Source of the DNA: a virus
Virus record (IMG/VR): IMGVR_UViG_3300009514_000006
Coordinates: 61,615-125,614 of that record
Length of the DNA stretch: 64,000 nt
Reading direction: 5' to 3' (one strand)
How positions within the stretch are numbered: position 1 is the first letter of the stretch; each line of letters starts with the position of its first letter. Both the position numbers and the translations under genes were made by a program. Positions 12,862 through 44,260 of this stretch are shown piece after piece. The notes under the pieces are model-generated. The model was given only the letters and a program-made list of their open reading frames with translations, did no database searches and was not told the DNA's origin.

Positions 12862-13158
12862 CTATAGAATTTCCTCGAACCGAAGGGTGTCTGCTCGCAT
12901 ATGACGCAAACAGCGCTCTTCGGTGATGTCGTATCCTATGTCTTCTCCCACTGCAAAGTAGGTCGCGGGCGGGACTGGGGCTAGTTCGTGACACGTCCCA
13001 TCACACCCTCGCATACGAATAAGAACAGTGGGCCCGAAAGAATTACCAGCTCCCAGGCTTCTATTTTCCCCTAAATATTTAAATCTGGCCATGGTACCTA
13101 CCTTTGAAATTAGCCATTTGATTTCCTTCTGTGTAGAGTTAAGGCAACAATCTGACAA
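12862..13158 (-). CDS. Hypothetical virion protein (true start probably MARFKYLG)
   Basis: ORF inside the structural operon. Confidence 0.5.
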   Translation of the reverse strand: MSDCCLNSTQKEIKWLISKVGTMARFKYLGENRSLGAGNSFGPTVLIRMRGCDGTCHELAPVPPATYFAVGEDIGYDITEERCLRHMRADTLRFEEIL

Positions 13159-13597
13159 AATTAAAATCTCTACTCAGCAAAAGTCTTCCACTTTCAATTC
13201 CCACTCCAACAACTTGCAATATAACTATTTCACCAGCATTAGGGAAAGGGGGTATATTAGTAGCCACTCCAGTCTTACTTATCCAATACCTAGAATTAGG
13301 AATAGTAGGAATAACAGTAGTTTCTCCTGTTAGTCCCTGAACAACACACCTAGTAGGAGTAGACTTTTCGATAATAACCCCTACTGAAGGCATAGTATTT
13401 TCATCCGTAATATCAACAGTGGTTACCTGCGGTATCCCCGCAACTTCTAGACCAGTCGTATACACAAAAGAACCAACTATATCCCCGGCTAAACAATCTG
13501 CTTCAAAGTAATAACCCTTGGCAAGATCTCTCTCATCAGTCGCATTAACGGGCTCAGCTCGACGTATTTGAGAGTGTCTAATTAAAGTACGGGGCAC
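13139..13597 (-). CDS. Capsid cement/decoration-like protein (DUF2190-like)
   Basis: CLAGDIVG.FVY...MPSVGVII...CVVQG..GE...RYWIS..G pattern. Confidence 0.5.
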   Translation of the reverse strand: MPRTLIRHSQIRRAEPVNATDERDLAKGYYFEADCLAGDIVGSFVYTTGLEVAGIPQVTTVDITDENTMPSVGVIIEKSTPTRCVVQGLTGETTVIPTIPNSRYWISKTGVATNIPPFPNAGEIVILQVVGVGIESGRLLLSRDFNFVRLLP

Positions 13598-17362: not shown

Positions 17363-18784
17363 TTAGCTAAGACGACCGATATTAACAAAACGGAGCCACT
17401 TCTTGTCGGCGAAAAGAATGGGCGTACCATACAGCAAGATCATCCAGCGGTATGCCGGAGCCAGAATGGCCAGATCCATACGCAACATAGGAAGAAGCTG
17501 TCGGAACGTAAGAACGCTCGGAGTCATTTCTCCCATGTAGGCGATGTCCGTGAACGGCAGCAAGAAGTTAACATCATCAGGAGTAGTCGTGCTACTAGGC
17601 GTGGCGTTAGCAGCAGGAACCTGAAGGATGAGGCTGTAATCAGCCGGGGTGGTGGAGGCCGCACCACTAGTGGCTTGCGGACGGGTACGGTAGACACGGA
17701 AATACTCAGCCTGAGTACCCGAAGCGGCATGGGTGATCGTAAGATCAACATGGTTGGTAATCGTAGCAACGGCTTGCTTGTTCGTGATGAATCGAGGAGC
17801 CGACTCACCAAAACGGTTGGCAGCAGTAACAGCATAGCCGTAATAATTGGTACCGGCCGGTACGCCCTTACCAAAGTCACCATCCGTACCAGACACACCC
17901 GACGCAATGGACGTAGGCTGCGCCGGCGCCGATCCAGACGTAGCAACGGCAGGGGGCGACGGAAGTTGCTTAAGGAAGACGTTCGGGTTAAGCTCCATCA
18001 CACCCGCTTGGGTCATAACCGAGTTAACCGACATTCCGACCATTCCGTTTTGCGGGGCCGGAAGGCTGATCCGCTCACGGGGATAGAAGGTCTTCACCAG
18101 GTCACTAGCAACCCGGGTACCCAACCAAAGGTCCGTAGGATAGGCAAATTGCTCGACAAGAAGGTTTGCACCCTCTTCGATGTCGGCTTCTTGCATCGGC
18201 TGACCTTCAAGGTCAATGAACGAGGTGGCGTCAATAAGACTGTCAAGACCGTCCCATTGCTCCGCTTCGCCATCTACGGCCAAGGACGAGTCGCCCTTGA
18301 ACAAACTGTTTTCCATCTTCTCAAGCAGCCAGAGGATACCGTTCTGGTTTTCCAGAGCGATAACATCACCATGAGCAGGATGGACCACAGTCATCGGGTG
18401 CGTCACTTCACGGGTGACACCGATGTACTTAACAAGCGAGGTACGACGAGCGTACGTCGAGTCTTGCGTGGGGGGTAGTTCGCCTTCACGAACAAACCCG
18501 CCGGAGCTGCTACCATAGTCCACCAACTGGTTGTACTCCTCAACCGTGCTATAAGCAGGGCTCTTAGGAATCTTCTTCCAGAATTTGATGTGGTGAGCTG
18601 TGTGGGTGACGACCTTCAATGAGCCTTCAAGAGACTCAACCCGAAGGGCCGAACCACCCGTTTGACCAGTCAATTGATAACCAGCTTCAAGAGCTTTCTG
18701 CAGATCCTGCAGGTTAGCGGACGAATCTACTCCGAAACCGCTAACGGGCTGCTGGCTGTAATTATTGAGACTAACACCAGACAT
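17363..18784 (-). CDS. Major capsid protein, SPO1/Twort/A511 (Herelleviridae)-type
   Basis: LQKALEAGY..GSALRVESLE...AYSTVEEY...FKGDSSL...WDGL...GEMTPSVLTFRQLLPMLRMDLA...YGTPILFADKKW matches the remembered phage K/A511 Cps layout end to end. Confidence 0.92.
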   Translation of the reverse strand: MSGVSLNNYSQQPVSGFGVDSSANLQDLQKALEAGYQLTGQTGGSALRVESLEGSLKVVTHTAHHIKFWKKIPKSPAYSTVEEYNQLVDYGSSSGGFVREGELPPTQDSTYARRTSLVKYIGVTREVTHPMTVVHPAHGDVIALENQNGILWLLEKMENSLFKGDSSLAVDGEAEQWDGLDSLIDATSFIDLEGQPMQEADIEEGANLLVEQFAYPTDLWLGTRVASDLVKTFYPRERISLPAPQNGMVGMSVNSVMTQAGVMELNPNVFLKQLPSPPAVATSGSAPAQPTSIASGVSGTDGDFGKGVPAGTNYYGYAVTAANRFGESAPRFITNKQAVATITNHVDLTITHAASGTQAEYFRVYRTRPQATSGAASTTPADYSLILQVPAANATPSSTTTPDDVNFLLPFTDIAYMGEMTPSVLTFRQLLPMLRMDLAILAPAYRWMILLYGTPILFADKKWLRFVNIGRLS

Positions 18785-18806
18785 AGGTTATTATTCCTTT
18801 CCCGAA

Positions 18807-19835
18807 TTAGCGGTTGTTGCCGCTTGCGAAGTTAAGAACCTTCTGTTGCACTTCAGGCAGCAGTTGGCCACTGGTTTCATACTTGATAACATCAAGACTT
18901 CCAAGCTGTCCCTTATGGACCATGTCAGTCATAATGTCGGTGATCTGAGCCTTGGTCAGGTCCATGTCCAAGCCGCCCGGGCCGCTGAAGTTTTTCTTCA
19001 GGACCTGAACATCTTGGCCGCCCTGCACCGAACGAAGCTGCGACTTGGGAGCACCAACGGGCTCTTGCGCCTTAGCAATCGCGAGGTCAGTGGTACCCGA
19101 GACATGCTCGCCAATACCCACAACAGCCTCAACAAGAGCCTTATTAAGCTCCTCGTTCTGGCTGTGGGCCTTAGCAAGGTTACCCTCAAGGGTATTCACT
19201 CGATGCTCAAGAGTGGCAACAACATTGGCCAGACTTTTGCCAATTCGAGCTTCGACGCCGCTAATAGCTTCGCCGAAAGCGCGAGTAAACTCAGCAAGGA
19301 AAGGAGAAATCTCAAGACCCTTCTGGAGTTCAGGAGAGTTAAAGGACTTCTTAGCGTCGCCCTCAACCTCGTCGTCCTTACCGCCAGCGTGGCTGTCCAC
19401 CACACTACCAGCATCGTCATCCTCACCAGGAGTCCCAGCAGGACCCGGTTTGGCTTTGCCCTTGGCAATACCTTGGAAGCTGTTCGCGACAGCCCAATTC
19501 TCTGCCTTGGTCAACGACTCACCCTTAGCGAGTTTGCTACCGATCAACGGAAGCGGATTGGCTCCCTTGGCGATTGCTACTTCCGCAGGAGACAAGGCTT
19601 GGCTCTTAGCCACCTTATCCGCCAAGCTAGCGCGAACGCTCTTGTAGCTCATGCCATTATAGTCAGTACCGTTATCATCGATACCGTTGTCCCACTCATT
19701 CTGGTCCGTCTCAGACGAACCCCAGCCTGCTTCGCCTACTGACGAATCGCTGGGAGTGTGGTACAACTGCCCCTTTGCCATCGTTTCTAGGCGCTCCAGG
19801 CTTTTCTGGAATTCGCCCTTGTTAATATTCGCCAT
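18807..19835 (-). CDS. Capsid scaffold protein
   Basis: Between protease and MCP, coiled coil, at least 15 h-x-K-[S/A/G] motifs by manual count. Confidence 0.75.
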   Translation of the reverse strand: MANINKGEFQKSLERLETMAKGQLYHTPSDSSVGEAGWGSSETDQNEWDNGIDDNGTDYNGMSYKSVRASLADKVAKSQALSPAEVAIAKGANPLPLIGSKLAKGESLTKAENWAVANSFQGIAKGKAKPGPAGTPGEDDDAGSVVDSHAGGKDDEVEGDAKKSFNSPELQKGLEISPFLAEFTRAFGEAISGVEARIGKSLANVVATLEHRVNTLEGNLAKAHSQNEELNKALVEAVVGIGEHVSGTTDLAIAKAQEPVGAPKSQLRSVQGGQDVQVLKKNFSGPGGLDMDLTKAQITDIMTDMVHKGQLGSLDVIKYETSGQLLPEVQQKVLNFASGNNR

Positions 19836-19851
19836 TAGGCACTCCTCTCAG

Positions 19852-20682
19852 TCATTTGTTTAGTTTTCTTTCTGTGAAAATTGCATCAACAACAAGCGAA
19901 GCCGTGGATCGACCCCACCCTTTGTCCAATTGTAGAGCCTTAATACACTCCTCCCGAGACAGCATTGCCTCTTGAGGAATATCATCAAGACTTTTAAAGG
20001 TAGTTACCTTAGCTCTTCCTTCCAAGGATTGAGGAACTAAAGACCTACCCATACCCCCAACAGAAAGAGCTTTCTCATGCTCTTCTCTCTCTTGTTTGGG
20101 TGTTTCCTTCTCTTCATGCTCGTGCATGTCGTCTTCACTGCCGCACTCACATGAAATAACTGCTTTATCCATAGAATCACACCATTCTTCAGCACAGAGA
20201 GATTTAACTATCTGTGTCCAGGTGCTGGTGTTAACCGGGGCTGCGGTAATAGCTACATCCTTGATCCAACACTTAAGGATGCTTTTTCCAGCTCGTCGCT
20301 TGACTTTCCCCTCAATGGAGAAACCAACTCGTCGTTTAGAGTCAGACTGATCGAGCGACTGTAGGTGCTCCCACCACTTATCGGAGATTTCCTTGCCTTT
20401 ATACAAAAACCCTTTAATCCAGAAGCCATCCTTGGTTATCTTAGCTTCTGTAGGTTCTCCGACTTTATTCTCTGGACCCTCTTTATGATCGTTATTGATA
20501 TAGCCATTTTTCAAGAAGTATTCAAAATCAATACCATCTTGAACAACCCGCTCCCCTTGTAGATCTAGGTCGGCAGTAGACGCAATACCTTCAATCCAGC
20601 GAGTGCCATCACCCGTTTTGTTGGCTTTGACAACAGTTGCTGGAAGGAAAAACTGGAAAGTGTCTTTATTAGGCTTACTCAT
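19852..20682 (-). CDS. Prohead maturation protease (HK97/assemblin fold)
   Basis: IEGIAST.DLDLQGE...INNDH...IG.P...GFSIEG...VAITAAPVN. Confidence 0.9.
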   Translation of the reverse strand: MSKPNKDTFQFFLPATVVKANKTGDGTRWIEGIASTADLDLQGERVVQDGIDFEYFLKNGYINNDHKEGPENKVGEPTEAKITKDGFWIKGFLYKGKEISDKWWEHLQSLDQSDSKRRVGFSIEGKVKRRAGKSILKCWIKDVAITAAPVNTSTWTQIVKSLCAEEWCDSMDKAVISCECGSEDDMHEHEEKETPKQEREEHEKALSVGGMGRSLVPQSLEGRAKVTTFKSLDDIPQEAMLSREECIKALQLDKGWGRSTASLVVDAIFTERKLNK

Positions 20683-20686
20683 GACG

Positions 20687-20720
20687 AAAAAAGGGAGAGA
20701 CCGCCGAGGCAGCTCTCCCT
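20687..20720 (-). terminator. Terminator-like hairpin ending 4 nt before the protease ATG
   Basis: gggagag/ctctccc stem then T6, CGTC, ATG on minus strand. Confidence 0.6.
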
Positions 20721-20779
20721 ATATGGAGTCCTTTAGTATGTGCTAGCTCGATAACTTTACTATGATAGTTTATGTAATG

Positions 20780-21001
20780 TCAAGTACTTTTTTTGCTATA
20801 TCCCTTGATAAACAAAGGAGGATTTGCATTGTCAAAATCTGCTCTAATAGGAACAGGTATCTCTTTGTTACAACCCTTACAAACAGCCCAAGATGTGCTG
20901 TTATCCTTCAGTATCAAGATCTTAGACCTAATCTTAAATCCATTGCCATCGGACTTAATGATTAGTTCTCCACACGAGCAGGTTAGGGTTGGTGCGTTCA
21001 T
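20780..21001 (-). CDS. Small Zn-ribbon protein
   Basis: CSC...CKGC, 73 aa. Confidence 0.6.
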   Translation of the reverse strand: MNAPTLTCSCGELIIKSDGNGFKIRSKILILKDNSTSWAVCKGCNKEIPVPIRADFDNANPPLFIKGYSKKST

Positions 21002-22023
21002 ACGTAATTATGTAAAGGCGTTGTATGCAACCACTTACTAAAAACAGACTCACTAGGAGTCCTAGATGTTAGGTCAGAAGAAACTCTGGGGATGCTCATG
21101 AATGATCTATGGTCCATCAAAGGAGCACCAACATTACTCCTCATCTTTGCGTTTTCTTCTATGACCCGAATAACTACAGGGTCCACATACTGCTCCTGAA
21201 TAACGCTGAGGCAGAAATCAAGATCTTCAGAAGTATTCAAGTTGTACCCCAGCTCTGAAGCTACTTCAATTAGAGATTGTCGGTGAGCGTATCCTACATC
21301 CGCACCTCTATCTAGGAAGCCTTGCATAGAAGTAATGTAGGCATTGCTGGCGTGGTATGTTTGTAGACCCTCTAGAGGTATACCTAACTCTACCAGTAAA
21401 TTCGTGATAAGATGAGGACCAATCCTACGGGGCTCAAAGTAAGATAGATCGCTCTGACTATCTACCTTAGGCACAACAAATAAAGGTTCTTTTGGATCTC
21501 GGTTAGAGCACAGCATCCTTAGGGCCTGAGAGACTTCGGGGGAGCAGTGAATCCTCCTCTTACCTAGACGACAAATCTCTCGGGCACAAACAATATCTTT
21601 GATGCTCAGACCAGTAATCTCCCACAGACGAAATCTGCCCTGGTCCAGCAACATAAGAATCAAAGCAACAGACTTGTCCTTCATATGGGGAGATTTAAAC
21701 AGGGTGCTAACATAGGATCTAAAAGTAGGAAGACGAGAATCAACAAGAGCATTCTGCTGGTGTATTTTCCACCCACTTTGCCCCGCCATGTCCTCCTCTA
21801 GATAAGAGTATTCATGTGATCCATTAACAGGGTTAACCCACCTAGCGGCCCACAAATTTTTAGGGTCATTAGGGTGATAACCTTGGTTCCATTCAACAGG
21901 AGCACCTGGGTAGGGTGCCCGGGATAACCGGCGCCCATCTTCAGTTAGAAAAGGTGATTTTTCAGGTTCTTGCTTAGTATTGGAACCCATCTTTTGAGTC
22001 CTCTTCTGCAAGACTAGCAACAC
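20998..22023 (-). CDS. Type IB topoisomerase-fold protein, probably catalytically degenerate
   Basis: W...G..EYSY, RLPTFR, ALILMLLDQGRFR, LGK, GLQTYHAS, VASELGY, QYVDP follow the pox/bacterial TopIB motif order. Confidence 0.65.
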   Translation of the reverse strand: MLLVLQKRTQKMGSNTKQEPEKSPFLTEDGRRLSRAPYPGAPVEWNQGYHPNDPKNLWAARWVNPVNGSHEYSYLEEDMAGQSGWKIHQQNALVDSRLPTFRSYVSTLFKSPHMKDKSVALILMLLDQGRFRLWEITGLSIKDIVCAREICRLGKRRIHCSPEVSQALRMLCSNRDPKEPLFVVPKVDSQSDLSYFEPRRIGPHLITNLLVELGIPLEGLQTYHASNAYITSMQGFLDRGADVGYAHRQSLIEVASELGYNLNTSEDLDFCLSVIQEQYVDPVVIRVIEENAKMRSNVGAPLMDHRSFMSIPRVSSDLTSRTPSESVFSKWLHTTPLHNYV

Positions 22024-22780
22024 CCTCAGGACCTGCTTGCGGATCTGAGTGATCTAGTAGATCTGGATCTTCGAATGTTGCAGACTGCATAGTCATAGGA
22101 GACATCTGCTCAAACAAGTCTAGTTGATCTTCTAAAAAGCCTTTGACCTCTGCGCGGATATGGTTTTCAGTGACAGGAAAGTACTGATAGCCATCTCCCC
22201 ATATTTCAGCAGCCAAAGGCATCAGCTGAGCTTCGTCAACAGAATCAATGAGCATGAGAGCTTGGTTTACAAACATTGGGTCATTTACATTCATCACAAG
22301 AGCCGGAGGAGCTGCTTCCTGCTCTGTCTCTACTGGCGCCTCCTCGTCTCCGAATGCCTTCTTCACAAACTTATTTTTGAAATCATCTATGGAATACTCT
22401 TTCATAGATCCAAAAAATTTAGGTGTGTTGAAGTGCATAAGATAAGCCGCTTTGGCCTCCCTAGCCGTACAAAACCCAATCATAACTTTCTGTTCATCCA
22501 GCTTTTTAAATTCAGGTTTCTTTAGTTGATCTACAACAAAGACTTTCGGGGAGTCATCATGGGGACCCACAAACACATCAAGCTGATCTCCGTCCCAACC
22601 CTTATCTTTCATACCACAAAAATATCCATAAGGATAATGCATCTTTGTGGTACCTTTCTCACCCGTTGCTTCGTCGGTCCAATGACGAACTTGACCCTTA
22701 TCTGTCTCAATAGAGATCTCTAGATCCTGAAACTCAATTTTTCGAGCTAGCTTTCTAGCTTTTTCAGTGACCTTGAACAT
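21974..22780 (-). CDS. Inorganic-pyrophosphatase-like (InPase) phage protein with acidic C-terminal extension
   Basis: ISIETDKG..R...MHYPYGYF...DGDQLDVFVG...FVVDQ...DEQKVMIGF. Confidence 0.8.
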   Translation of the reverse strand: MFKVTEKARKLARKIEFQDLEISIETDKGQVRHWTDEATGEKGTTKMHYPYGYFCGMKDKGWDGDQLDVFVGPHDDSPKVFVVDQLKKPEFKKLDEQKVMIGFCTAREAKAAYLMHFNTPKFFGSMKEYSIDDFKNKFVKKAFGDEEAPVETEQEAAPPALVMNVNDPMFVNQALMLIDSVDEAQLMPLAAEIWGDGYQYFPVTENHIRAEVKGFLEDQLDLFEQMSPMTMQSATFEDPDLLDHSDPQAGPEGVASLAEEDSKDGFQY

Positions 22781-22781
22781 C

Positions 22782-24314
22782 CTAGTACTGTTTCATCGCC
22801 TCAATGGCCTTCTGCTGGGCTTCATACAGCTGCCTCTGATAAGAATCACTACCGGGACCTTGCCCGTATACTCCAGGCGCCTCTGGATTATCCTCTGCTC
22901 CCTCGCCTACCGCGATAGTAGTAGACGCTGCGCCGTCTGGGGGAGAAAACGTTCCGTCAGTATTATGGTTAGGATTACCGCCTAAATGTCCCGGAACTCC
23001 CGACATACGATTCCTGGGCATCTCACCCTCAGATATGTCAGCTATCGAGTCAAAGGCCCCTGCATGAGTTGGTGGTGTTCGTAGCTCCTTGGTTCCATTA
23101 GCATTAAGCTCTTGTCCAGCACTTCCCGAATCAATAAGGTCCATCAGGTCCTGCAGCTGTGCGCGGATGGCTCCTAAATCTAAGCCACTATCCATAGGGC
23201 TACCCGAGTCTCCTGTCGGAGCTGTTTCTAGGGAGTCATCGTAGGCAAAATCTTCTTCACCACCAAGAGAGCCCTCGTCTTCTGGGAGCATACTCTCCAT
23301 AGAAAAATCATCATCATATGCCGCATCATCATAATCATCGCCGCCAAAGGATTCTGCGTCCTGAGGTCTTTCGTTGACATTAGTCATGGGACCCACCGGG
23401 CCACCAGTGGCCGTATGCTTCATACCAGGAGCGGGGCCGCTACCACTAGCGGCCATCAACGGTTTATTCTGCTCCGGGGAAACATCTGGTTGCGACAGAA
23501 GATTATCAAATGATCCATTATTTCTGTCATCCATACTGTTCATAGACTCAACAAAGCGATCAGAAGGACTCAGTGAATCCTTCCTGCGGTCTTCATGTGC
23601 GTCAGCATTATTCATGAACCGCATAGTGTCTTCAGGGGTCTCAGCCTCATCACTCAACAATCTGTTGAGCATCTCTGCTTCTTCATGATCCTCAGGAGAG
23701 AAGTCTTCGTGACCAGAGAAATAAGGATCATCAAAGATATCTAATCCATGAGTTGTATGCCCCATTACATCTGCTTTAGTGTCATTTTGGAGCTGTGGAG
23801 CGATAGCCTTAGGAGCACCTGGAAGCTGCGCAGGGACACTTGGGGCTGCTTTTTTTACCGATCTCTTAGCTCCTCCTTTGCCAGACCTTTCCCCTGGCGA
23901 GGGCAGGCGACGGACATGTCTACCCCCCTCTCGTAGCTCCAAAAGAGATTCCAATTTCTCGTGAGCACGAAGTTTATGCTCGCGTTCAGTTTTAGCCTTA
24001 TCCTCTTCTGCGGTTGACTGGGATCCTACATCTTCAGACGCAGCAAACTTACCAGAATGAGGGTCCCGCTTGCGCTGAAATTGTGGGCCAGAAGCAGTAT
24101 ATTTCACTGGTACTCTGATGGCTTTGTTCAAGTATAGAGAAGGCCCATGCTCAACAATAACAGGAGGTGTGATAACATTGTTACCTCGTGTCGGAGGAGT
24201 ACCACACCTGGCCGCCTCTATAGACTTCTCAATATAGGACGGTTTTCGTTCTTGGGGAATCACTACATTAGGAGTAACCCAATTAAGACGTTTGATACTT
24301 CCGTGGTCCGACAT
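22782..24314 (-). CDS. Acidic low-complexity head-associated protein
   Basis: 510 aa, RDPHSGKF motif, D/E/G/P-rich. Confidence 0.6.
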   Translation of the reverse strand: MSDHGSIKRLNWVTPNVVIPQERKPSYIEKSIEAARCGTPPTRGNNVITPPVIVEHGPSLYLNKAIRVPVKYTASGPQFQRKRDPHSGKFAASEDVGSQSTAEEDKAKTEREHKLRAHEKLESLLELREGGRHVRRLPSPGERSGKGGAKRSVKKAAPSVPAQLPGAPKAIAPQLQNDTKADVMGHTTHGLDIFDDPYFSGHEDFSPEDHEEAEMLNRLLSDEAETPEDTMRFMNNADAHEDRRKDSLSPSDRFVESMNSMDDRNNGSFDNLLSQPDVSPEQNKPLMAASGSGPAPGMKHTATGGPVGPMTNVNERPQDAESFGGDDYDDAAYDDDFSMESMLPEDEGSLGGEEDFAYDDSLETAPTGDSGSPMDSGLDLGAIRAQLQDLMDLIDSGSAGQELNANGTKELRTPPTHAGAFDSIADISEGEMPRNRMSGVPGHLGGNPNHNTDGTFSPPDGAASTTIAVGEGAEDNPEAPGVYGQGPGSDSYQRQLYEAQQKAIEAMKQY

Positions 24315-24322
24315 AGAGTCTC

Positions 24323-24796
24323 CTACTTGCCGCTTAGTGTACGGCTTTGTCCAGGAACAAAAACACCACCACTACCGGCATTATATGCAACTTCTTCCGC
24401 TAAATGTGCCATAACTAGCTGCTTTAACTTAGACTTCTCAGTACGAGACAGCTGGGTACGGATCTCCGCCATCATTGGTTCCATTTTACGAAACTTAAGA
24501 GGGAACACAACAGTAAGCAAAGCCTCCTCCATCGGAGTCAAAAAACCATTGTACTCGGCCTTGTGGATAGCATCAATAATGGCATTAGAAGCCCAAACAT
24601 AATCTAGCTCACCGTTGGGATAACGCCGCATAGTACTCATCATATGGGTACTCGGTCTGTCCTCAAGGTTATGGTATTTGCTCTCGTGTTGTTCGTGCGG
24701 AGCAAACGACTCGTAGCTAGGATTAGTCTCTTTAGCTTTTACGATATTCGGATTCTGCATATGCAGAGGAACTCTTGGTGTGCTGTTACTGCTCAT
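24323..24796 (-). CDS. Hypothetical head-region protein
   Basis: 157 aa, IVKA/IHKA motifs. Confidence 0.55.
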   Translation of the reverse strand: MSSNSTPRVPLHMQNPNIVKAKETNPSYESFAPHEQHESKYHNLEDRPSTHMMSTMRRYPNGELDYVWASNAIIDAIHKAEYNGFLTPMEEALLTVVFPLKFRKMEPMMAEIRTQLSRTEKSKLKQLVMAHLAEEVAYNAGSGGVFVPGQSRTLSGK

Positions 24797-24923
24797 TTTT
24801 TCCTCTCGATATTAATGTATAGAGGTTGACTCTTTTTGATTGAAGAGTCCTTTACCAACAAGGGAACCTTGTTTGGTACCGAAATCCACAAAGGAATTGA
24901 TTTTTCTATCTTACCCATATAGG

Positions 24924-26054
24924 TCACCCACAATTCGGACAGAAAAGATTACCCCCAGCAGATTTTGTCAATCGAGCATTGCAGGAGGAACAACAAGTCG
25001 ATTTGTAAAGACCACAAGAAAAACAACCAACAGATGATTTATACACAGTACCATGAGTAGGACAATTATTATAAGGGTCTGCCACTCGGTTATAGTCCTT
25101 ACCAGAAACATCTTTAAGGGTATCCCCAACAAGAGGAGCTACACCTTCGGGACTATAAAGAGCCGAGTTCTGACGGGTCATCGTCTTCATGGCAGAGTTA
25201 TACACGCCAAAGGGGTCATAAACTCCCTGCGGGCGGGGGATGTGCATAGAACGAGTTGTTAGGGCCTTTCCCATACCCTGAAGTTTGGTACCCAAGGAAT
25301 ACTCTGGGCTACCCTTAGGCTGATTAGCCGTCAAACTCTGTCCCGCTCCATGAAGGGACGCTTGCCGGCTAATTGTATGACCAGCTTCGGGCTTAGTGCC
25401 AGAAGTATACTCAGGTTTATTAGTAATCTGCCTTACGGTTTGAGCCGGGGGTACAGTAGGTTCTTTTCTAGCTCGATCTATCTCAGATCCCTTACCAGAC
25501 TCAAAAGCCTTGTCTGTCCACTCTTTCTTAAGCGTCTCTCCCTCTTCATCAAACAGGTCCTCTAGACTCTTCTCAGCAGGAGGCATACCTGGTAGAGGGC
25601 CTTTAGCTCTTTCCCCGGGAGTTTCAGAGGTTACTGTTCCCTTTAGCTTAGAAGGAACAGGAGGCGGACCAGATTTAGGAACAGGAGGAGGACCAGCCTT
25701 AGATACCCCAGCTTGGTTAGCTGCGATTGCTATTGCTTGCTTTCGTCCGCCAGGATACTTATCGGGATTGTCTTTCATCTCTCTCATATTAGCGGAAATC
25801 TTCCGCTCAAAGTGAGATTCCTTTTTATCCTTGTCCTCATCTTCATCATCAGAGGCTTTAAGCAAGTCTAGCAAGTTAGTCATAGTATTAGGTCCCTTAT
25901 TTACTGGCGTTTTAATAAGCCACGGTTTTTTATCTTTAGGATAATCGTCCACACTAAAATCACCAACAGAACTATCTTTATACCCCCCACCTCGCTTACG
26001 ATCTTGTTCAGCAATCTGCTGGGGGGTCATATTTGGTGTATATGATTTCTTCAT
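24924..26054 (-). CDS. Low-complexity head-region protein with C-terminal Zn ribbons
   Basis: C-terminal CPTH/CFSC/CSSC/CPNC; several K-S/A motifs. Confidence 0.6.
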   Translation of the reverse strand: MKKSYTPNMTPQQIAEQDRKRGGGYKDSSVGDFSVDDYPKDKKPWLIKTPVNKGPNTMTNLLDLLKASDDEDEDKDKKESHFERKISANMREMKDNPDKYPGGRKQAIAIAANQAGVSKAGPPPVPKSGPPPVPSKLKGTVTSETPGERAKGPLPGMPPAEKSLEDLFDEEGETLKKEWTDKAFESGKGSEIDRARKEPTVPPAQTVRQITNKPEYTSGTKPEAGHTISRQASLHGAGQSLTANQPKGSPEYSLGTKLQGMGKALTTRSMHIPRPQGVYDPFGVYNSAMKTMTRQNSALYSPEGVAPLVGDTLKDVSGKDYNRVADPYNNCPTHGTVYKSSVGCFSCGLYKSTCCSSCNARLTKSAGGNLFCPNCG

Positions 26055-27742
26055 CCCAGATCCCCCACATCAGGCAGGCCGTCTGCGGCGCTGTATTTAG
26101 GGGGAGCCTCAAAACCTTGTTGTGAAGAAGAACCAGGAAGAGCAGCAGGAGGCTCCGCAGACTCAGGAGCAGGTTGAGCTGCCTGTGCAGCCTCTGTTGC
26201 TTGCTGCAGCTGCATCAGCTGTAGATATGTGGGGTTCAAGGGAACGTCACCACCAGGGAGATCCGGCAGGTCCGCTTGTCGGCGAACTTCATTAAGCGTT
26301 AGATAACTAGATAGCTGTTCTACAAGAAGATTATGTTTGTCCTGCTCAGACAGCTCATCCAAACCAACGAACTCAAGAGTAAAATGATCATCGATCCGAT
26401 CAATAATATTCTTGTTGATCATCCTAGCAACAAATCTCAGAAGAGGCTTCAAGCCCCTATCGCGAGATGCTTTCAGTTTCCACTCTTGAGAGGACTCAAA
26501 CAAAGGAGTCTGCTGTACTCCTCCGTGCATGTCAAAGTTTAGCTCTGCTGGATCTATGAGGAAAACACCGCAGGTAATTTTCAATAGATATTCCATCCAT
26601 CGGCCAAATTCCATTTCTTGATTCGACCTAGCCAACTCGATCCATTCAATGCCCTCGGATTGAAGAACCGGGGTTTTCCATGCGTTATCTACTCCTGCAA
26701 CCTGCGCAGACCAATGCCGCCTAAACTCTTCAAGCTGATCTGGGGTCCAGTTATCTCCTCGTAGGTTAAGAATACCCTTAGGGGCACTACCTTGCGTAAA
26801 AAAGTGCCTATTATACGTCTCAGCATTGAGATGAGCAGTGATAATAGTAATCAGTTGCTCTAACTCAGATAAACCATAACCAGAAGTATAGATATCAGTT
26901 CTAGGATTTCTAACCCCAAAAATCATCTCCTTATCACTATAAATATTTTCAATTTGTCCGTTCACAACCTGTACATAGGCTACTTCGTCACCTTCAGCGG
27001 TACGAATGTCGTCATTACCATATTCCCGACCCTGGTATAGTCCCGCAAACCTAGAAGGAACAGAAGGAACAAAGCCTGTCCGACTATGATAAGAAGAATT
27101 GATCCCAACATAACGATTGTCTGAGGCTATTCGTATAGTAGAGGCATCAACCGCTAAAAACTCATAAGGAAGACCTAAACGATCAGGAACCACCTCAGTA
27201 CAACTTTGGTCAAACAAAAGTGAGTCACGAACTATCTTTCGTAGCCAACTCTCAAAATCATCTCTTGGTTGTCTAGAGTATGGGTTCTTTTCAGCCCGAC
27301 CGCAGTTCAATACAAAATTTTCAAGTTCTTTAATAAAGGCAACTTCGGAAGCAGTTGTGGGGTGGTCTGCCTCTTTGTGTTTAATCACAAAACCAAGACT
27401 ACGAGTAGACCTATAGGGCTGAGAAAAAGAAGCAACCTGAGCCGCTCGGGTGTTAATGATGGCGCTAATAATGCTTAGCTGGCCTGAAATCTTCTTAAGG
27501 GTGTCATAGGTTACGCTGTATCTACGATCTTTATACCCTAAGCTATACTGAAGGGTGAGAGGGTCGCTGAACCAACTTTTTGGTGACCTTTGGGAATCCG
27601 TATTAGGAAGCTGCTTCCACCCCTTCTGGATGTTTTCCCGAACCATCGGCATAATCTGCTGAGTTGCGACGGCCATCTTAGCCGCCTCAGCGATTATGCT
27701 AGCATAATCAATATCCGGAGGATTGTTAGGTTTCTTAGCCAA
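26051..27742 (-). CDS. Portal protein
   Basis: IINTRAAQV, GLSELE, FFTQGSAPKGIL, MEFGRWMEYL...GVFLIDPAELNF, GLKPLL, TLNEVR. Confidence 0.92.
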   Translation of the reverse strand: MAKKPNNPPDIDYASIIAEAAKMAVATQQIMPMVRENIQKGWKQLPNTDSQRSPKSWFSDPLTLQYSLGYKDRRYSVTYDTLKKISGQLSIISAIINTRAAQVASFSQPYRSTRSLGFVIKHKEADHPTTASEVAFIKELENFVLNCGRAEKNPYSRQPRDDFESWLRKIVRDSLLFDQSCTEVVPDRLGLPYEFLAVDASTIRIASDNRYVGINSSYHSRTGFVPSVPSRFAGLYQGREYGNDDIRTAEGDEVAYVQVVNGQIENIYSDKEMIFGVRNPRTDIYTSGYGLSELEQLITIITAHLNAETYNRHFFTQGSAPKGILNLRGDNWTPDQLEEFRRHWSAQVAGVDNAWKTPVLQSEGIEWIELARSNQEMEFGRWMEYLLKITCGVFLIDPAELNFDMHGGVQQTPLFESSQEWKLKASRDRGLKPLLRFVARMINKNIIDRIDDHFTLEFVGLDELSEQDKHNLLVEQLSSYLTLNEVRRQADLPDLPGGDVPLNPTYLQLMQLQQATEAAQAAQPAPESAEPPAALPGSSSQQGFEAPPKYSAADGLPDVGDLG

Positions 27743-27743
27743 A

Positions 27744-28661
27744 TTACTTTCTCCACCCCTTTAAATCATTCAGCTTGGATCGTAGAGACTTATTCATCCA
27801 CCTAGCATATAACACCTTCTGGGTGGGGTTCATACGAGTATCGCCAGCTTCTATTTGTTCAGGGGTCTTTCCTACTACTTCTAGTAGAAACTGTTTCTCT
27901 TTATCAGAGGCTGTATGGAAGGTTCTAGGAGCTGTGCGCTGGAGACTCTGCCCCAGCCCCTTGATCAACGATGCAGCATTCCAAGATTTTTCTACCTCTT
28001 TTAGCTTTGAATAATAATCTTGATCCTCAGTAAGATGGTCCATCGCAATCTCAGTAGCTATGGACCTATCAGAAGTGTGCTCAAGTTCTACTTTAACTCC
28101 CTCATCCAATTTATCTTGGTCAAAGTCAGACGGACTTTTACCATCAGCAAGACCGCCAGGAATGGCATCTGCTTTCTGAGTAATCTCTTCCTCTTCGTGC
28201 CACTGTCTACCCACTTCAGGCAGATCCGGCGTGACAGAACCAGCGGCACCAGGATGCTTTGCTGTGGCGAGTCTCTGCTGGGCGACCACATCCTGTTCTT
28301 CGTCCACCACAGGCATAGATCCCATGGCTACATCTGCTTTTTCCATTCGGACAATATCGCAGCCTAGAGAACAACTTTTGAGAAGCTTATTAGCCTCCCA
28401 TACTTTGTCCCTATCGTTTGCTTTCACCAAGGAGAACTTACCGTCCGGTATGTAGCTAAAGTAGTACAAATCATCTTTAGAAGACTTAACAATGCCTCTA
28501 AACACATTGTTCATAACACCATAACGAACGGACTCTGGGACAACACCGTTCTTGATAGACTTATGAACAATAGCAACTTCAGTCATCCTGTTAGAAGGAG
28601 ACAACGAAGTATAATAGTCCATAATGGACTCATCTGTATTATTTACTTTTTGTTCAGCCAT
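27744..28661 (-). CDS. Head-associated protein with DUF5661-like domain
   Basis: IPGGLADG...GVKVELEHT...EIAMDHLTED.DYYSKL. Confidence 0.75.
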   Translation of the reverse strand: MAEQKVNNTDESIMDYYTSLSPSNRMTEVAIVHKSIKNGVVPESVRYGVMNNVFRGIVKSSKDDLYYFSYIPDGKFSLVKANDRDKVWEANKLLKSCSLGCDIVRMEKADVAMGSMPVVDEEQDVVAQQRLATAKHPGAAGSVTPDLPEVGRQWHEEEEITQKADAIPGGLADGKSPSDFDQDKLDEGVKVELEHTSDRSIATEIAMDHLTEDQDYYSKLKEVEKSWNAASLIKGLGQSLQRTAPRTFHTASDKEKQFLLEVVGKTPEQIEAGDTRMNPTQKVLYARWMNKSLRSKLNDLKGWRK

Positions 28662-30346
28662 TCTTTTAAACTTTCCATAGATCTCTTAAAAGGTACAGGT
28701 TTACCAGGTTTTGGAGAATTTATTGGTGGCCGAGAAAAATTAGAACCCGTACCTGGGTCGCCTATGCCCTCTCTTCTCCCCGGAATAAGCTGCCCCACGG
28801 CAGCAGCCGTTGGACCAACGGTACCACCAGGGTCACCCAAGCCAGCCCCCATAGCGTACGCTGTACCAAGAGTAGGCAACTTAACTGCCCAAGGATTATC
28901 CTTACTTGTAGAGCTAGATTCCTTTTCCTTAGGAGACTTATCCTTCTCTTCAGGATCATCTCCCGGCAAATCAAGATGTTCCGGGGCCTGTGCTTGAGGG
29001 TCCGGGGTCTGTGCTTGAGGGTCCGGAGTCTGTGCTTGAGGGTCCGGGGCCTGTGCTCGGGGTGCCTCTTTAGCTGCTCTAGTGGCCTGTTCGACTTTTT
29101 GCCTCTGCCTCTCTGCCCAGGGAATATTTCTTTGTTGTTCGTTAAAATTGGTAGGAGGGTCACGAAGAGGCAACATGTCCTCTAGACCAGCACCGGGACG
29201 AGAAGAAGCTTGGGACCTAGACGGAACCAAATGCGTAGGAGGCGGAGGAAGGGGCTCTGCCTGCTGTTGCGGGGCCTGTGCTCGGGGTGCCTCTTTAGCT
29301 GCTCTCAACGGTAAACGATCCGTATCAAAGGGCGCCTGAAGAGGAAGACGACTAGTATTGAAGGGACCCGACGGAGGCGGAGGAAGGGGCTCTGCCTGCT
29401 GTTGCGGGGCCTGTGCTCGGGGTGCCTGTGGTTTAGCTACGGTTATTTTTTGTCTAGCTCCTGCTACTCTCTGCTGTCGCATCGAAGAAGCGGGTTTCTT
29501 GCCCGCCATAACAGGAGACGCAGTAGGAGCACGAGGCTTAGTAGGAGCCGCAGTAGGAGCACGAGGCTTAGTAGGAGCCGCAGTAGGAGCACGAGGCTTA
29601 GTAGGAGCCGCAGTAGGAGCACGAGGCTTAGCAGGCGCCGCAGTAGGAGCACGAGGCTTAGCAGGCGCCGCAGTAGGAGCCGCAGTAGGAGCACGAGGCT
29701 TAGCAGGCGCCGCAGTAGGAGCCGCTGCTACGGGTTCCCGGGGTTTTCCCGTTCCCTTAGAAACATCAAACATCCATCCAAGTGACTTATGCGTTTCCTC
29801 GTCTTCACCGTCTTTAACTTCTGGCGAAGACGCTATTTGATAACCAAGAGAACGAGATGGTTTATCTTCTTTTTCATCCCTATACTCTTTTATCTTATCG
29901 AGGGCTTTACCAAGCTTACCTGGATTGGTCTGTACCCTAGTGGCAGCTCTTTCCACGGTCGGCCCAGCCTCAGTATCACCATATTCAAAATCACTCTGTC
30001 CTGGCTTGCGAGAAGTAGTAGAGACACGAGATCTACCTGCTACGTCCACAGGAGAGGGAGAAAGGGGCGCCTTAAGAGGCAGTCTATCTATGATATTCTT
30101 CGACACACTATTAGGAGAAACACGATGCCCTTCAACGGATATAGAGGCTTGGTAAGAGCAAAGCTTACCAGCCCCGTGCTTGTGCCCGCACTGAGGGCAC
30201 TTAGCTCCTTTAATGTCATTACCACCCACAGGCCCGCCCATCATCTCTTCCTTCAGCCGGGAGGCTACGGCCTTAGGGGGTTTGACCCCCTTCTGCATGT
30301 CGGCCATGTTGATAAACTTAGCGGACTTTTGAGTGGGTGACTTCAT
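28643..30346 (-). CDS. Disordered Pro/Ala-rich protein with Zn knuckle and tandem repeats
   Basis: CPQC...C near N-terminus; (PTKPRAPTAA)n, (PDPQAQT)3, duplicated PRAQAPQQQAEPLPPPP. Confidence 0.65.
   Translation of the reverse strand: MKSPTQKSAKFINMADMQKGVKPPKAVASRLKEEMMGGPVGGNDIKGAKCPQCGHKHGAGKLCSYQASISVEGHRVSPNSVSKNIIDRLPLKAPLSPSPVDVAGRSRVSTTSRKPGQSDFEYGDTEAGPTVERAATRVQTNPGKLGKALDKIKEYRDEKEDKPSRSLGYQIASSPEVKDGEDEETHKSLGWMFDVSKGTGKPREPVAAAPTAAPAKPRAPTAAPTAAPAKPRAPTAAPAKPRAPTAAPTKPRAPTAAPTKPRAPTAAPTKPRAPTASPVMAGKKPASSMRQQRVAGARQKITVAKPQAPRAQAPQQQAEPLPPPPSGPFNTSRLPLQAPFDTDRLPLRAAKEAPRAQAPQQQAEPLPPPPTHLVPSRSQASSRPGAGLEDMLPLRDPPTNFNEQQRNIPWAERQRQKVEQATRAAKEAPRAQAPDPQAQTPDPQAQTPDPQAQAPEHLDLPGDDPEEKDKSPKEKESSSTSKDNPWAVKLPTLGTAYAMGAGLGDPGGTVGPTAAAVGQLIPGRREGIGDPGTGSNFSRPPINSPKPGKPVPFKRSMESLKEWLNKK
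29515..29725. repeat. 30-bp coding tandem repeat
   Basis: gcagtaggagcacgaggcttag(t/c)agg(a/c)gcc units, about 6 copies with partial insertions. Confidence 0.9.
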
Positions 30347-31051
30347 TTAATCCGTTTCTGCCAAAGCAGCAGCACCCATCGGCATAGGATTAACACCTAC
30401 CGACGATGAACTGTTCGCGTTCGGCTGAGCATTGCCACCTTTGCGGGGCCGCCCACGTTTTCGTTCTTCTCTGCTTTTAGCAGCTTGATCTTGTGCCCTT
30501 GAGGAGTCTCGTTCCCGTCGGGGGACAGTGGAGTTGGACGAGACCAGCAATACGTTGTCACCCTTAGCTACAATGGATTTCTCTACAGACACAAAATCCT
30601 TAGAATAATCAGTAGCCTCAGTAACCAACAACTCAACATGAGAAGTGCCAGAGGTGGCCAAGCTATATCCAGTTCCTTTAGGGAGAAGGATATAACCACC
30701 CTCATTGATGAGGGACGTGTTTGTATTCTCAATACTGTTGTCTTCTTTAATCGTACCAAGAATCAAATAGACACTACCCCTCATTACACGAGCAGTTTTA
30801 TCTCTCTTTTTATTGATTCCGAACCCTGTAGAGTTACCGGCATACATACACTCAAAATATTGGGAGAATTCGCTATTGCTAAATATTTCGTTACGATACC
30901 CATGAAGGGTATCCACCTTAGCAACATTCGCAGGGGCCGAGCTACCGATCCCTCTGCGGTTCATAATATCAGAGTGCTTGGTGCCAGCGTGTGGGTCAAG
31001 GCGGCGTGTCTTGCGGCCTTTGTTGTCATTTCTATTCGGGTTATAGCTCAT
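30347..31051 (-). CDS. Cupin-fold protein
   Basis: RVMRGSVYL...LINEGGYILLPKGTGYSL...G...VELLV cupin-like motifs; usual metal-binding His not evident. Confidence 0.5.
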   Translation of the reverse strand: MSYNPNRNDNKGRKTRRLDPHAGTKHSDIMNRRGIGSSAPANVAKVDTLHGYRNEIFSNSEFSQYFECMYAGNSTGFGINKKRDKTARVMRGSVYLILGTIKEDNSIENTNTSLINEGGYILLPKGTGYSLATSGTSHVELLVTEATDYSKDFVSVEKSIVAKGDNVLLVSSNSTVPRRERDSSRAQDQAAKSREERKRGRPRKGGNAQPNANSSSSVGVNPMPMGAAALAETD

Positions 31052-36707: not shown

Positions 36708-37310
36708 TTGCCGAAATATACGAAGATCTTAGATAGAAATGGCGAAAATGAAGCCGTAGTAACGCCAATAGGGGAAGTCCTTGTCACAGGTAATTTTTCT
36801 ACCTCTGATCAGGCTAACCCTACCAGCGCAGGAGATATACTTCACGGGTCCGTTGAGCTTGCAGGCAGTGACGACCTCCGTGTGGATGGCACCTCTCCAA
36901 AAGTTTTCTCGTTTCTTAGTGATCCTAGCTCTAGTATAGACCTATATATTCGTGATATAAGGTTTATATTAGTTAGCAAACATATAGATCCTTCGGGTGC
37001 CAGTTTCGGTCCTATTCCTTCCTTAACAAATGGTTTGCTCTTTGAACTCCAGACCGATGGGGTTTCTAAAACCATTGCAAACTTCAAAATAACTGAAGAC
37101 TTTCTACGGACTGTGTCTAATCCAGAGTCCGATCCAATTAACAGATCCGGAGCATATGATACCCTCACGGCTATATATGATTATGGGGGAGGCTTAAGTT
37201 TAAAAGGGGGTACAAGTGATTTCGTCAAGGTCACTGTGCGGGACGACTTAAGCCTCCCCCAACTCCTATATTTTACCTGCTCCGTGACAGCTACAAAGGT
37301 GGCAGTCTAA
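36708..37310 (+). CDS. Virion accessory protein, shared N-terminal peptide family
   Basis: N-terminus nearly identical to 41432; body paralogous to 1296..1892. Confidence 0.7.
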   Translation: MPKYTKILDRNGENEAVVTPIGEVLVTGNFSTSDQANPTSAGDILHGSVELAGSDDLRVDGTSPKVFSFLSDPSSSIDLYIRDIRFILVSKHIDPSGASFGPIPSLTNGLLFELQTDGVSKTIANFKITEDFLRTVSNPESDPINRSGAYDTLTAIYDYGGGLSLKGGTSDFVKVTVRDDLSLPQLLYFTCSVTATKVAV

Positions 37311-37909
37311 TGCCCACTCATATCGAATTTCCAGCTGGTCACGAACCGTCCACATTAAGGGCTCACTTTCAAGAGGGGTTAGTTACCCGTGCCGATGATC
37401 TTAGCATAAATATTCGATTAGGTCACTTCATTATTGGGTCTAATCACATAAAATATTTGGGAGCGGTTGACCAACCTGTAGTAGACGATACCCTTAATTA
37501 CGTCTATCTAAACTCTGCCGGTGTTCTTCAGATCAACCAAACTGGATTTCCTTTAGCTAATCCGCACATACGACTAGCCCGGGTAAGTGCTAGTAACGGT
37601 ATTATCTGTGCTGTGATAGACGAGCGGGAGCTAATGACCTCAGGTCTGGGGTTTCTTGGATCTATTAAAGCCGGAAAATTAATACCAGGTAATTTTAGCG
37701 GGAATCCTAAAACAGCATCGGTAACATTTGGTACTTCCCTTATAGATACAGAATATACCATTACTTGGGGCGTAGAAGCGATCAATAACCAATCATTTTT
37801 AGTTAGTTTTGAGAACAAGACCATAAATGGTTTCACGGTAAACTTAAATACAAATAATTTAGCAGACTTTGCCCTGCTCACATGGCAAGTGATCCCCATA
37901 GGAGAATAA
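37310..37909 (+). CDS. Fibre-associated protein with C-terminal H-lectin/gp53-like domain
   Basis: SVTFGTSLIDTEY.I...NKTINGFTV...LTWQVI. Confidence 0.55.
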   Translation: MPTHIEFPAGHEPSTLRAHFQEGLVTRADDLSINIRLGHFIIGSNHIKYLGAVDQPVVDDTLNYVYLNSAGVLQINQTGFPLANPHIRLARVSASNGIICAVIDERELMTSGLGFLGSIKAGKLIPGNFSGNPKTASVTFGTSLIDTEYTITWGVEAINNQSFLVSFENKTINGFTVNLNTNNLADFALLTWQVIPIGE

Positions 37910-37912
37910 TCA

Positions 37913-39097: not shown

Positions 39098-39104
39098 GTG
39101 ACCA

Positions 39105-39872
39105 ATGCCCCAATTTATTGATTCCATTGGTTTTGACAATCTAACGATTGATCCGGTCTCCCCTACTAATGGAGAGATATGGTTTAATACTACTGCAAAT
39201 GAATTTAGAACCTTTGTTAATGGTGTTGTAATTTCTTTGAATGATCCTCGTGTGTCAAACAATGACACTACTCCTGCTCCTCTATTTACTAAACTCATAG
39301 CAGGGTCTAATGTTCTTCTTGAAGAAGTTAATGATGGGGGGAATGAAAAGTTACGTATAAATGCAGCAGGTAATGGTGTAGGTGATGGTAGGTTCACCAT
39401 TGACGTAGCAGCCATGTTGGCTAAGCAGGATGACAACCCAGATGATGTGAACAAAGTTGTTATAAATGGTTTTCCAGGACTAAAGATTAAGCACAGTAAA
39501 ACAGCTTTTGGTATATCAGGTCTCTATCTCATAGGCGGCGGTACCTCTCTTACTGTAACCGCCAAGTTCATTTTGAGGGACAGCCATGCAGGAACAATCG
39601 TAAGGCTTGCAGCCAGGGCAAAGGTTAGGAGCACCGGAGAGAATACCAGCACAGGATTTGACGCAGAAAATTTTGTTCCCATTACGGTGAACTCAACTAC
39701 TATTGGTGAGGTTTTTGAAGGTACCATAGTTCTTCCTATTACCGTATCAGATAACGATGCCGTAGCTTTGCATGTTGGTCGAGACGGAAAAAACCTGATT
39801 GCAGGCGCCGGTGCTCCTGACGACTTTGGTAAACCTATCGTTATAATCGCAGTTGAAATGAGAGTTTCCTAA
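39105..39872 (+). CDS. Fibre-associated protein
   Basis: DPVSPTNGEIWFNTT motif as in 37913; VSNNDTT..L..KLIAG motif as in 3586..7446. Confidence 0.65.
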   Translation: MPQFIDSIGFDNLTIDPVSPTNGEIWFNTTANEFRTFVNGVVISLNDPRVSNNDTTPAPLFTKLIAGSNVLLEEVNDGGNEKLRINAAGNGVGDGRFTIDVAAMLAKQDDNPDDVNKVVINGFPGLKIKHSKTAFGISGLYLIGGGTSLTVTAKFILRDSHAGTIVRLAARAKVRSTGENTSTGFDAENFVPITVNSTTIGEVFEGTIVLPITVSDNDAVALHVGRDGKNLIAGAGAPDDFGKPIVIIAVEMRVS

Positions 39873-41361: not shown

Positions 41362-41367
41362 AATCTA

Positions 41368-41397
41368 TTGACATACATACTTTTTATCTGGTAAAGT
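41368..41397 (+). promoter_or_regulatory. Sigma70-type promoter TTGACA-N18-TAAAGT
   Basis: Counted spacing of 18. Confidence 0.6.
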
Positions 41398-41431
41398 TTG
41401 TGGACCTGGTGTATGCTCTGAGCGTACCCCC

Positions 41432-42778: not shown

Positions 42779-42783
42779 GACTA

Positions 42784-44251: not shown

Positions 44252-44260
44252 GGTGTAGAA

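Follow-up and report, generated by a model that had tools for sequence, protein, structure and literature searches.

Introduction

Prohead proteases of the type found in phiKZ and SPN3US act on a simple motif that ends in Glu (S/A/G-x-E). In these giant phages, whose protease is gp175 or gp245, many head and ejection proteins are cut at a simple motif, mostly with loss of N-terminal propeptides (PMC10052503). In T4, the prohead protease cleaves after an L/I-x-E↓ motif and the N-terminal propeptides of the internal proteins, which are about 10-20 residues long, end in this motif (PMC9026906). For polyvalent proteins, whose domains include InPase, packaging into virions and an early delivery have been predicted (Iyer et al., 2017; PMC5512222). 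Here we have analyzed a stretch of 64,000 nucleotides (hereafter the window), which comprises bases 61615-125614 of the 125.6-kb IMG/VR virus record IMGVR_UViG_3300009514_000006, a record estimated to be 77% complete. The sequence originates from an uncultured phage, whose cargo and processing are predicted from its genes. The window contains the head-morphogenesis operon of a phage related to the Herelleviridae (17363-31051), in which the genes of the portal, the protease, the scaffold and the major capsid protein (MCP) are accompanied by nine extra genes. Most of the proteins encoded by these genes carry the motif at which the maturation protease probably cuts, which suggests that they are probably taken up into the capsid and processed inside it.

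The locus resembles the T4 prohead core (gp21, gp22, IPI-III and Alt) in its short three-position motif, in a scaffold that is cut to small peptides (here a prediction), in N-terminal propeptides that end in the motif and in a protease with its own motif near the N-terminus (PMC9026906). It differs in the P1 residue, which is Lys instead of Glu, in its MCP and protease, which belong to phrog_752 and phrog_1028 and not to the gp23 and gp21 types, and in its candidate cargo (InPase, a type IB topoisomerase (TopIB) fold and DUF5661), which is unrelated to the T4 proteins and for which no common targeting peptide was found. Processing at a simple motif is also shared with phiKZ and SPN3US, where extra copies of the motif are located inside propeptides (PMC10052503), whereas the genomes and capsids of those phages are much larger and their substrates were identified by mass spectrometry (MS) instead of being predicted. 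The Herelleviridae (SPO1, K/812 and A511) have a homologous MCP, protease and scaffold and an MCP propeptide that ends in K↓S/A after 23-24 residues (30 in the MCP of the window), but their head genes are contiguous, whereas nine extra genes are found here and the identity to their MCPs is only 42-47%. Polyvalent proteins (PMC5512222) contain the same type of InPase domain in matching domain combinations, as found in the metagenomic proteins P0077 and P0067. In contrast to those proteins, the domains here reside mostly on separate polypeptides and the predicted processing would be carried out by the capsid protease in trans and not by an embedded peptidase domain. Finally, the Dar system of phage P1 (DarA, DarB, Hdf, DdrA/B) offers a precedent for head-packaged accessory proteins, some of them processed, which are encoded together with morphogenesis genes, but no homology to this system was detected beyond InPase matches to a DarB-like PHROG.

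Organization of the head operon

The operon consists of 13 tightly packed open reading frames (ORFs), all located on the minus strand, and includes every ORF that had been listed in the sequence-only reading, an earlier model-generated annotation of this stretch. In the order of transcription, these encode p234, p567, p305, the portal, p376, p157, p510, an InPase-domain protein, p341, a 73-aa Zn-ribbon protein (Znr73), the protease, the scaffold and the MCP. The nine extra genes run in the same direction as the four core head genes and are packed closely among them, with six of them (about 5.3 kb) inserted between portal and protease and three located upstream of the portal. The contiguity of portal, protease, scaffold and MCP genes, a trait of the Herelleviridae head module, is hence not found in the window. 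In SPO1, K and A511, the four genes form an uninterrupted series, and the extra genes are therefore a clade-specific expansion. In a megablast search against phage records the block did not show any match, and no cultured phage is similar at the DNA level.

A lysine motif is enriched in the operon

In our analysis, we counted the motif [ILVMF]-x-K-[SAG] and obtained expected numbers from 2000 within-protein shuffles. The 13 proteins of the block contain 58 sites compared to 16.1 expected, a number that was reached in none of the 2000 shuffles, whereas the remaining ORFs of the window contain 44 (42.1 expected) and the whole 125.6-kb genome minus the block 98 (102.4 expected). The sequence-only reading had proposed a dense occurrence of this motif in the block and had named a shuffle-based count against other ORFs as a check, which thus bears out an enrichment over composition. 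The tetrapeptides that it had picked out are present, with the exception of TFKS in the protease, which falls outside the stated motif due to the Thr at P3. The excess depends on all three motif positions jointly, as 13 control patterns, where K was replaced by R, E, D or Q, the spacing was shifted or the order reversed, are found in the block at 0.7-1.4 times the expected frequency, and sites where only one flank is correct are depleted (0.74x and 0.77x). Chance, composition and helix periodicity are ruled out by the shuffles and the control patterns. All 58 sites differ as 12-mers and are encoded by mixed codons, which places the signal at the level of the protein and rules out a DNA-level repeat as its source.

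The motif signal is uneven across the block. It is strongest in the scaffold (15 sites vs 2.0 expected), p376 (9 vs 1.7) and p305 (8 vs 1.45), which are the only proteins that are significant singly after correction for 168 ORFs. The protease contains five sites (1.5 expected) and the MCP four (1.0 expected), while portal, p341 and the InPase protein contain a single site each, which is at expectation. The nine extra genes alone account for 33 sites versus 10.1 expected (Poisson p about 9e-9), of which 16 versus 7.0 remain after exclusion of p376 and p305 (p = 0.0025). The previous assignment of the signature to about eight genes was therefore too even, since the InPase and TopIB-fold proteins of the window display neither an excess nor the N-terminal site of their orthologs. 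The position of sites within proteins is equally distinctive. A site at residues 8-45 is found in nine of the 13 block proteins (1.8 expected) compared to 19 of 155 proteins elsewhere (17.7 expected), and sites resembling the end of an N-terminal propeptide are present in p157, p510, p567, p305, Znr73, the portal and the protease.

Relation of the motif to prohead proteolysis

The Herelleviridae-type prohead protease very probably cleaves at the h-x-K-[SAG] motif, as judged from three independent comparisons involving the A511 capsid protein Cps, the PDB chain 9row and the motif enrichment in SPO1 and K. In the GenBank record of A511, mature Cps is annotated to start 23 codons in, after the sequence EDALK↓SFTTGY, and this mat_peptide start aligns with LQK↓ALEAGY of the window MCP, in agreement with the maturation of Cps at the aligned K/S that had been stated in the sequence-only reading. 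The PDB chain 9row (439 aa) starts right after VVK24 of the 463-aa precursor of a K/812-type MCP (VVK↓S), and its first residue aligns with the junction LQK30↓ALEAGY of the window, where a cut is predicted. In SPO1, we find eight sites in the protease (1.5 expected) and 11 in the scaffold (1.3 expected), and in phage K six (1.5 expected) and seven (1.3 expected), respectively, whereas none of the other SPO1 and K genes in the regions examined is enriched, all being at expectation. No publication stating an h-x-K↓S/A/G motif for Herelleviridae proteases turned up in our incomplete coverage of the literature, and a protease-only locus scan did not yield any match. In the SPO1 protease (L002:10428-11198), the sequence LDK↓SLEAGY at residue 169 is a near copy of the MCP junction LNK↓ALEAGH and may constitute a self-cleavage site.

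The core proteins of the window carry the motif at corresponding positions. The MCP (17363-18784, 473 aa) is of the Herelleviridae type, as had been proposed, with matches to phrog_752 (E 2e-97) and to PDB entry 9vel (SPO1 Gp6.1, E 3e-112) and the 42-47% identity to SPO1-like MCPs found by tblastn; the homology of the head module is also supported by the PDB match 5lii. Its predicted maturation cut, LQK30↓A31, is kept in the relative G001 described below. In the scaffolding protein (18807-19835, 342 aa, phrog_15087), the 15 sites are spaced about every 20 residues and 11 of them share a column with the G001 ortholog, at a sequence identity of 50%. The prohead maturation protease (19852-20682, 276 aa, phrog_1028, E 1e-52) contains the N-terminal site VVK19↓A, and its sites at residues 19, 95 and 160 are kept in all three orthologs. 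The single site of the portal protein (26051-27742, 563 aa, PF04860 and phrog_12) is located near its N-terminus (IQK40↓G) and is likewise kept in three of three cases (VRK↓A, LRK↓A). The portal of G001 (L003:7016-10018) is 1000 aa long and contains an intein splicing domain with a LAGLIDADG match; the 994-aa portal of L014 (L014:3831-6815) probably carries the same insert.

Conservation in uncultured relatives

Alignment-based scans have identified four uncultured relatives, which are G001 (162.6 kb, estimated to be 94% complete) and the loci L013, L014 and L016. The gene order is the same in the window and the four relatives, with protein identities ranging between 23 and 67%. The enrichment is reproduced in G001, whose block contains 57 sites (22.6 expected), 15 of which are found in its scaffold, compared to 44 sites (60 expected) outside. 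Between the extra proteins and portals of the window and G001, the K motif is retained at 20 of 45 aligned sites compared to 18 of 91 for matched control motifs, and in p157, the portal, the protease, p376 and p510 the columns of sites persist while the residues at P3, P2 and P1' vary within their class. Together, gene order and sequence comparison indicate that the extra genes form a conserved expansion of the head module, whose products mostly have conserved sites.

Proposed processing of the extra proteins

In the explanation that we favor, h-x-Lys↓Ser/Ala/Gly would be the recognition site of the protease encoded at 19852-20682, and the operon of this clade, which includes the window and at least four relatives, has acquired additional genes that are conserved as a set. 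The products can be assigned to three classes. The multi-site proteins of class 1 (scaffold, p305 and p376) would probably be part of the prohead core and be cut to short peptides like T4 gp22. Class 2 is defined by one conserved N-proximal site and would comprise p157, p510, p567, the portal and the protease and, in the relatives, also the InPase and TopIB-fold proteins. Their short propeptides would probably be removed inside the prohead, like the targeting sequences of T4 internal proteins, while their bodies would remain in the capsid, from where some may exit with the DNA at infection. Class 3 contains the InPase protein, p341 and p234, which do not show any excess and which are placed in the module only because of their synteny and the architecture of homologous proteins. 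We infer a packaging, cleavage and ejection of extra proteins, which is related to the co-packaging and injection that the sequence-only reading had inferred for the entire block. That reading had included p305 and p376 in the released payload, whereas both resemble multi-site scaffold or core proteins more.

If correct, the proposed processing would provide a simple sequence rule to predict proteins that are loaded into the capsid and processed in Herelleviridae-type phages, a group to which phages of Staphylococcus, Listeria and Bacillus with uses in therapy and biocontrol belong. A third protease lineage, with another residue at P1, would join those of T4 and phiKZ in following the principle of internal head proteins, and the processing would tie a polyvalent repertoire (InPase, DUF5661 and TopIB-like) to a capsid protease acting in trans. 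A maturation cut following Lys is indistinguishable from a tryptic cut in routine virion proteomics. Since trypsin also cleaves after Lys, the semi-tryptic MS named as a check in the sequence-only reading would be blind to the proposed event.

A wider reading, which we consider as possible but regard with some doubt, would posit a Lys-specific code for loading and release in Herelleviridae-related phages, where h-x-K↓small sequences on the flanks of any protein or domain would cause its loading into the prohead and its release by the protease. In this clade, the code would be used for a set of polyvalent effectors (InPase, a dead TopIB module for DNA binding, DUF5661 and acidic low-complexity proteins) that are carried as separate, shuffleable genes and injected with the DNA. 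Because the cut would follow Lys, such processing would have escaped detection by standard tryptic proteomics and may thus be widespread yet unnoticed in therapeutic phages such as K and A511.

Proteins with multiple sites

The scaffold-like protein p305 (27744-28661) contains eight sites and a DUF5661 domain (27984-28169), which is identified by Pfam (PF18905, E 7e-10) as previously suggested. Within a family of 19 sequences, we find 112 sites compared to 15.5 expected, an average of about six per 250 aa, with conserved site columns but varying tetrapeptides. The DUF5661 domain is inserted between the sites at residues 108 and 225 and is absent from the p305 orthologs. In G001 (L003:13548-16118) and L016 (L016:6409-8025), it instead forms the N-terminal part of the InPase protein, a distribution of predicted domains which indicates that DUF5661 shuffles between carrier proteins of one operon within the clade. 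In the window and G001, DUF5661 has a motif site at or close to each of its two edges, and in L016 only upstream. The proposal that sites bracket folded domains thus holds for DUF5661 but not for the N-terminal domain of p305, where five sites are located within the domain or at its C-terminal edge. A VIA-align search with the p305 model did not yield any hit above Z 5.3, and no fold was assigned.

The second multi-site protein, p376 (24924-26054), was defined by its shuffle count and by alignment. Besides its nine sites, it has a Zn ribbon at the C-terminus and a PGGRKQAIAIA motif that is conserved. Homologs are found in metagenomes, and in an alignment of eight sequences K263 is invariant and followed by a conserved ALTxRSMHIPRP stretch; the K263 site is kept in all four syntenic orthologs. 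A tblastn search with p376 and p341 against cultured phages did not yield any match.

These proteins bear on the question of whether the extra proteins might be accessory scaffold or core components only, which would help to build or size the prohead and be degraded at their sites and gone before or during DNA packaging, so that nothing functional would reach the host. The eight to nine sites of p305 and p376 with their scaffold-like spacing and the density of sites in the p305 family would conform to such a role, as would the low-complexity stretches of p510 and p567, which are found in many scaffolds, and the TopIB fold that is devoid of catalytic residues. We nevertheless regard this explanation as unlikely, since the InPase domain spans its Pfam family end to end and belongs to a type known from polyvalent proteins with predicted packaging, and since these same proteins are extended by GNAT and DUF5661 modules in relatives. 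Moreover, where a protein carries a single N-terminal site its body would remain intact, in the manner of T4 internal proteins.

Proteins with an N-proximal site

The predicted propeptides of class 2 are best illustrated in p157 (24323-24796), a small protein identified by its orthologs, in which a propeptide-like N-terminus of roughly 20 residues ends in the predicted cut IVK20↓A. The N-terminal site is found in five of five orthologs as IVKA, LAKA, LVKA, LIKA or VAKA. An Atlas search with the protein provided only sub-threshold leads (P22 antirepressor C-terminal domain, score 0.86) and a poor model. The sequence of p510 (22782-24314) is acidic with long stretches of low complexity, and the protein is probably disordered. 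It carries the N-proximal sites IEK30↓S and LNK64↓A and has orthologs in the four relatives at 23-30% identity, with a site at residues 23-40 found in all five proteins.

In p567 (28643-30346), a protein with a Zn knuckle recognized in its sequence, the N-terminal site MQK19↓G is one of three sites in total, which does not constitute an excess (2.0 expected). The protein is extended by long tandem Pro/Ala-rich repeats (of the APTAAPAKPR type together with repeated AQAPQQQAEPLPPPP blocks). A resemblance to its N-terminus is visible in a 134-aa ORF that occupies the corresponding position in G001, although the two were not paired by BLAST. Since the protein in this place is much shorter in G001 (134 aa) and L014 (248 aa), the repeats are the result of a recent expansion. 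The double Zn ribbon Znr73 (20780-21001), recognized by its CxC...CxxC pattern, has a 38% identical ortholog at the same position in G001 and contains three sites (0.55 expected), one of which is conserved. The sites adjoin its Cys knuckles and the status of this protein as cargo is doubtful.

Proteins related to polyvalent domains

The InPase-domain protein (21974-22780, 268 aa) contains a domain that matches PF18823 end to end (E 6.5e-32), which substantiates the PPase-like domain that had been proposed for it, and its PHROG matches include minor head, virion and DarB-like proteins. Its single site, VKK141↓A, is located just past the domain, and a site at this C-terminal flank is kept in three of four orthologs. 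All four orthologs additionally have a site at residues 19-23, which is absent in the window protein. In L014, the InPase protein (L014:13276-15213) contains a GNAT acetyltransferase domain (21.1 bits at a cut-off of 20.7 bits), and InPase-GNAT fusions are described in the literature on polyvalent proteins. In the InPase protein of G001 (L003:13548-16118), a LAGLIDADG-type insert splits the InPase domain; neither the portal nor the InPase protein of the window contains inserts of the kind found in G001.

The ORF encoding p341 (20998-22023) extends into the end of the InPase gene, with an overlap of 50 nt if counted from its GTG codon and of 17 nt from its first ATG. Its AF2 model (pLDDT 87, pTM 0.84) displays a complete two-domain type IB topoisomerase fold. 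In Foldseek searches, the best match is TopIB of D. radiodurans (2f4q, E 2e-9 over 309 columns), with human and variola TopIB also found, and the family profile matches vaccinia TopIB (1a41, E 1.3e-4). The catalytic Arg-Lys-Arg-His/Asn-Tyr set is not preserved in p341, which contains a Gln at the position of the second Arg. Among 23 family members, each of the five catalytic positions is conserved in two to eight sequences, as judged from a remote alignment in which the positions are approximate. The model and the alignment thus describe p341 as a catalytically degenerate TopIB fold, in line with the pseudo-TopIB of the sequence-only reading. p341 corresponds to only the C-terminal third (about 320 residues) of orthologs of 916-1046 aa, whose N-terminal part of about 600 residues does not have a counterpart anywhere in the genome in tblastn searches. 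A motif site at residues 11-13 is found in three of the four large orthologs and is absent in p341.

An exhaustive HMMER search has revealed that the p341 module is normally the C-terminal part of proteins of 900-1800 aa. The metagenomic protein P0077 (1817 aa) combines DUF5661, a sub-threshold ART-PolyVal match, Topoisom_I and InPase, whereas P0067 contains Topoisom_I, InPase and SAM lyase, and the proteins in which InPase is found together with homologs of p341 and DUF5661 are 1147-1817 aa long. The fusion of DUF5661, TopIB-like and InPase domains in the 1817-aa protein supports the proposed analogy of the block to a polyvalent protein that is split into separate genes. A combination of several effector domains in one polypeptide is not found in the window, where the domains are distributed over separate ORFs of 157-567 aa, while the relatives contain the partly fused forms DUF5661-InPase and InPase-GNAT.

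The first gene of the block encodes p234 (30347-31051), which has a 35% identical ortholog in G001 and a cupin-like core. The previously proposed cupin remains a lead: the G001 ortholog matches Cupin_1 with 18.6 bits, below the cut-off of 22 bits, and Atlas leads to cupin clusters reach a feature score of 0.89 and a structural TM of 0.76-0.84 (target-normalised). The protein contains three sites (0.85 expected), none of which is N-terminal. Its C-terminus (30347-30460) forms a basic tail with an AT-hook-like RGRPRKG sequence, which suggests that it binds DNA.

The InPase protein, p341 and p234, which lack an excess, would be compatible with an explanation where the extra genes are ordinary non-virion genes, encoding enzymes of nucleotide or DNA metabolism or regulators, which reside in a late operon, with the enrichment originating from two or three scaffold-like proteins. 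We consider this as improbable in light of a gene order that is kept in five phages, the described N-terminal sites in orthologs of the InPase protein (residues 19-23) and p341 (residues 11-13) and an excess that survives the removal of p305 and p376.

Weighing of the evidence

Several observations weigh against a cleavage and packaging of the extra proteins as proposed. The InPase protein, p341 and p234 of the window were classed as showing no motif excess, and these three proteins as well as p376 do not have an N-terminal site. In a by-eye comparison, no common targeting sequence was apparent among the N-terminal peptides. Three of the p376 sites fall inside its Zn ribbon. Similarly, the N-terminal domain in the AF2 model of p305 (residues 8-105, pLDDT above 90) contains the sites 34, 59, 80 and 95, with site 108 located just past it, and most of these sites are placed by the model at the ends of helices and strands. 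The conservation of in-domain sites in p305 and p376 may thus be partly structural and their accessibility is uncertain. Finally, the cleavage site of A511 Cps has an Ala at P3 and the protein gp85 at the scaffold position of A511 is not enriched (2 vs 1.4 expected), two features that suggest a lineage-dependent preference at P3.

That the motif would not be cleaved in the extra proteins, but instead serve in docking or have a structural role (e.g. as helix-capping K-S/A/G) or reflect shared ancestry with scaffold-like segments, with only MCP, scaffold and protease being cut, appears to us as the least probable explanation, since, despite several conserved sites at predicted helix or strand ends of a folded domain or beside Zn-knuckle cysteines, R cannot substitute for K, shifted or reversed patterns are not in excess, the sites of p510 and p157 persist despite small indels and residue changes in low-complexity regions that are poorly conserved and no excess is found in the 155 ORFs outside of the block.

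Other regions of the window

Besides the head operon, we find a plus-strand cassette (36708-45747) with tail-fibre or baseplate-like genes, which does not show any motif excess. An ORF of 152 aa (13139-13597) that belongs to the neck or tail region downstream of the MCP contains two sites (0.18 expected, p = 0.015), one of them at residue 27, and is the sole marginal outlier among the structural genes outside the block.

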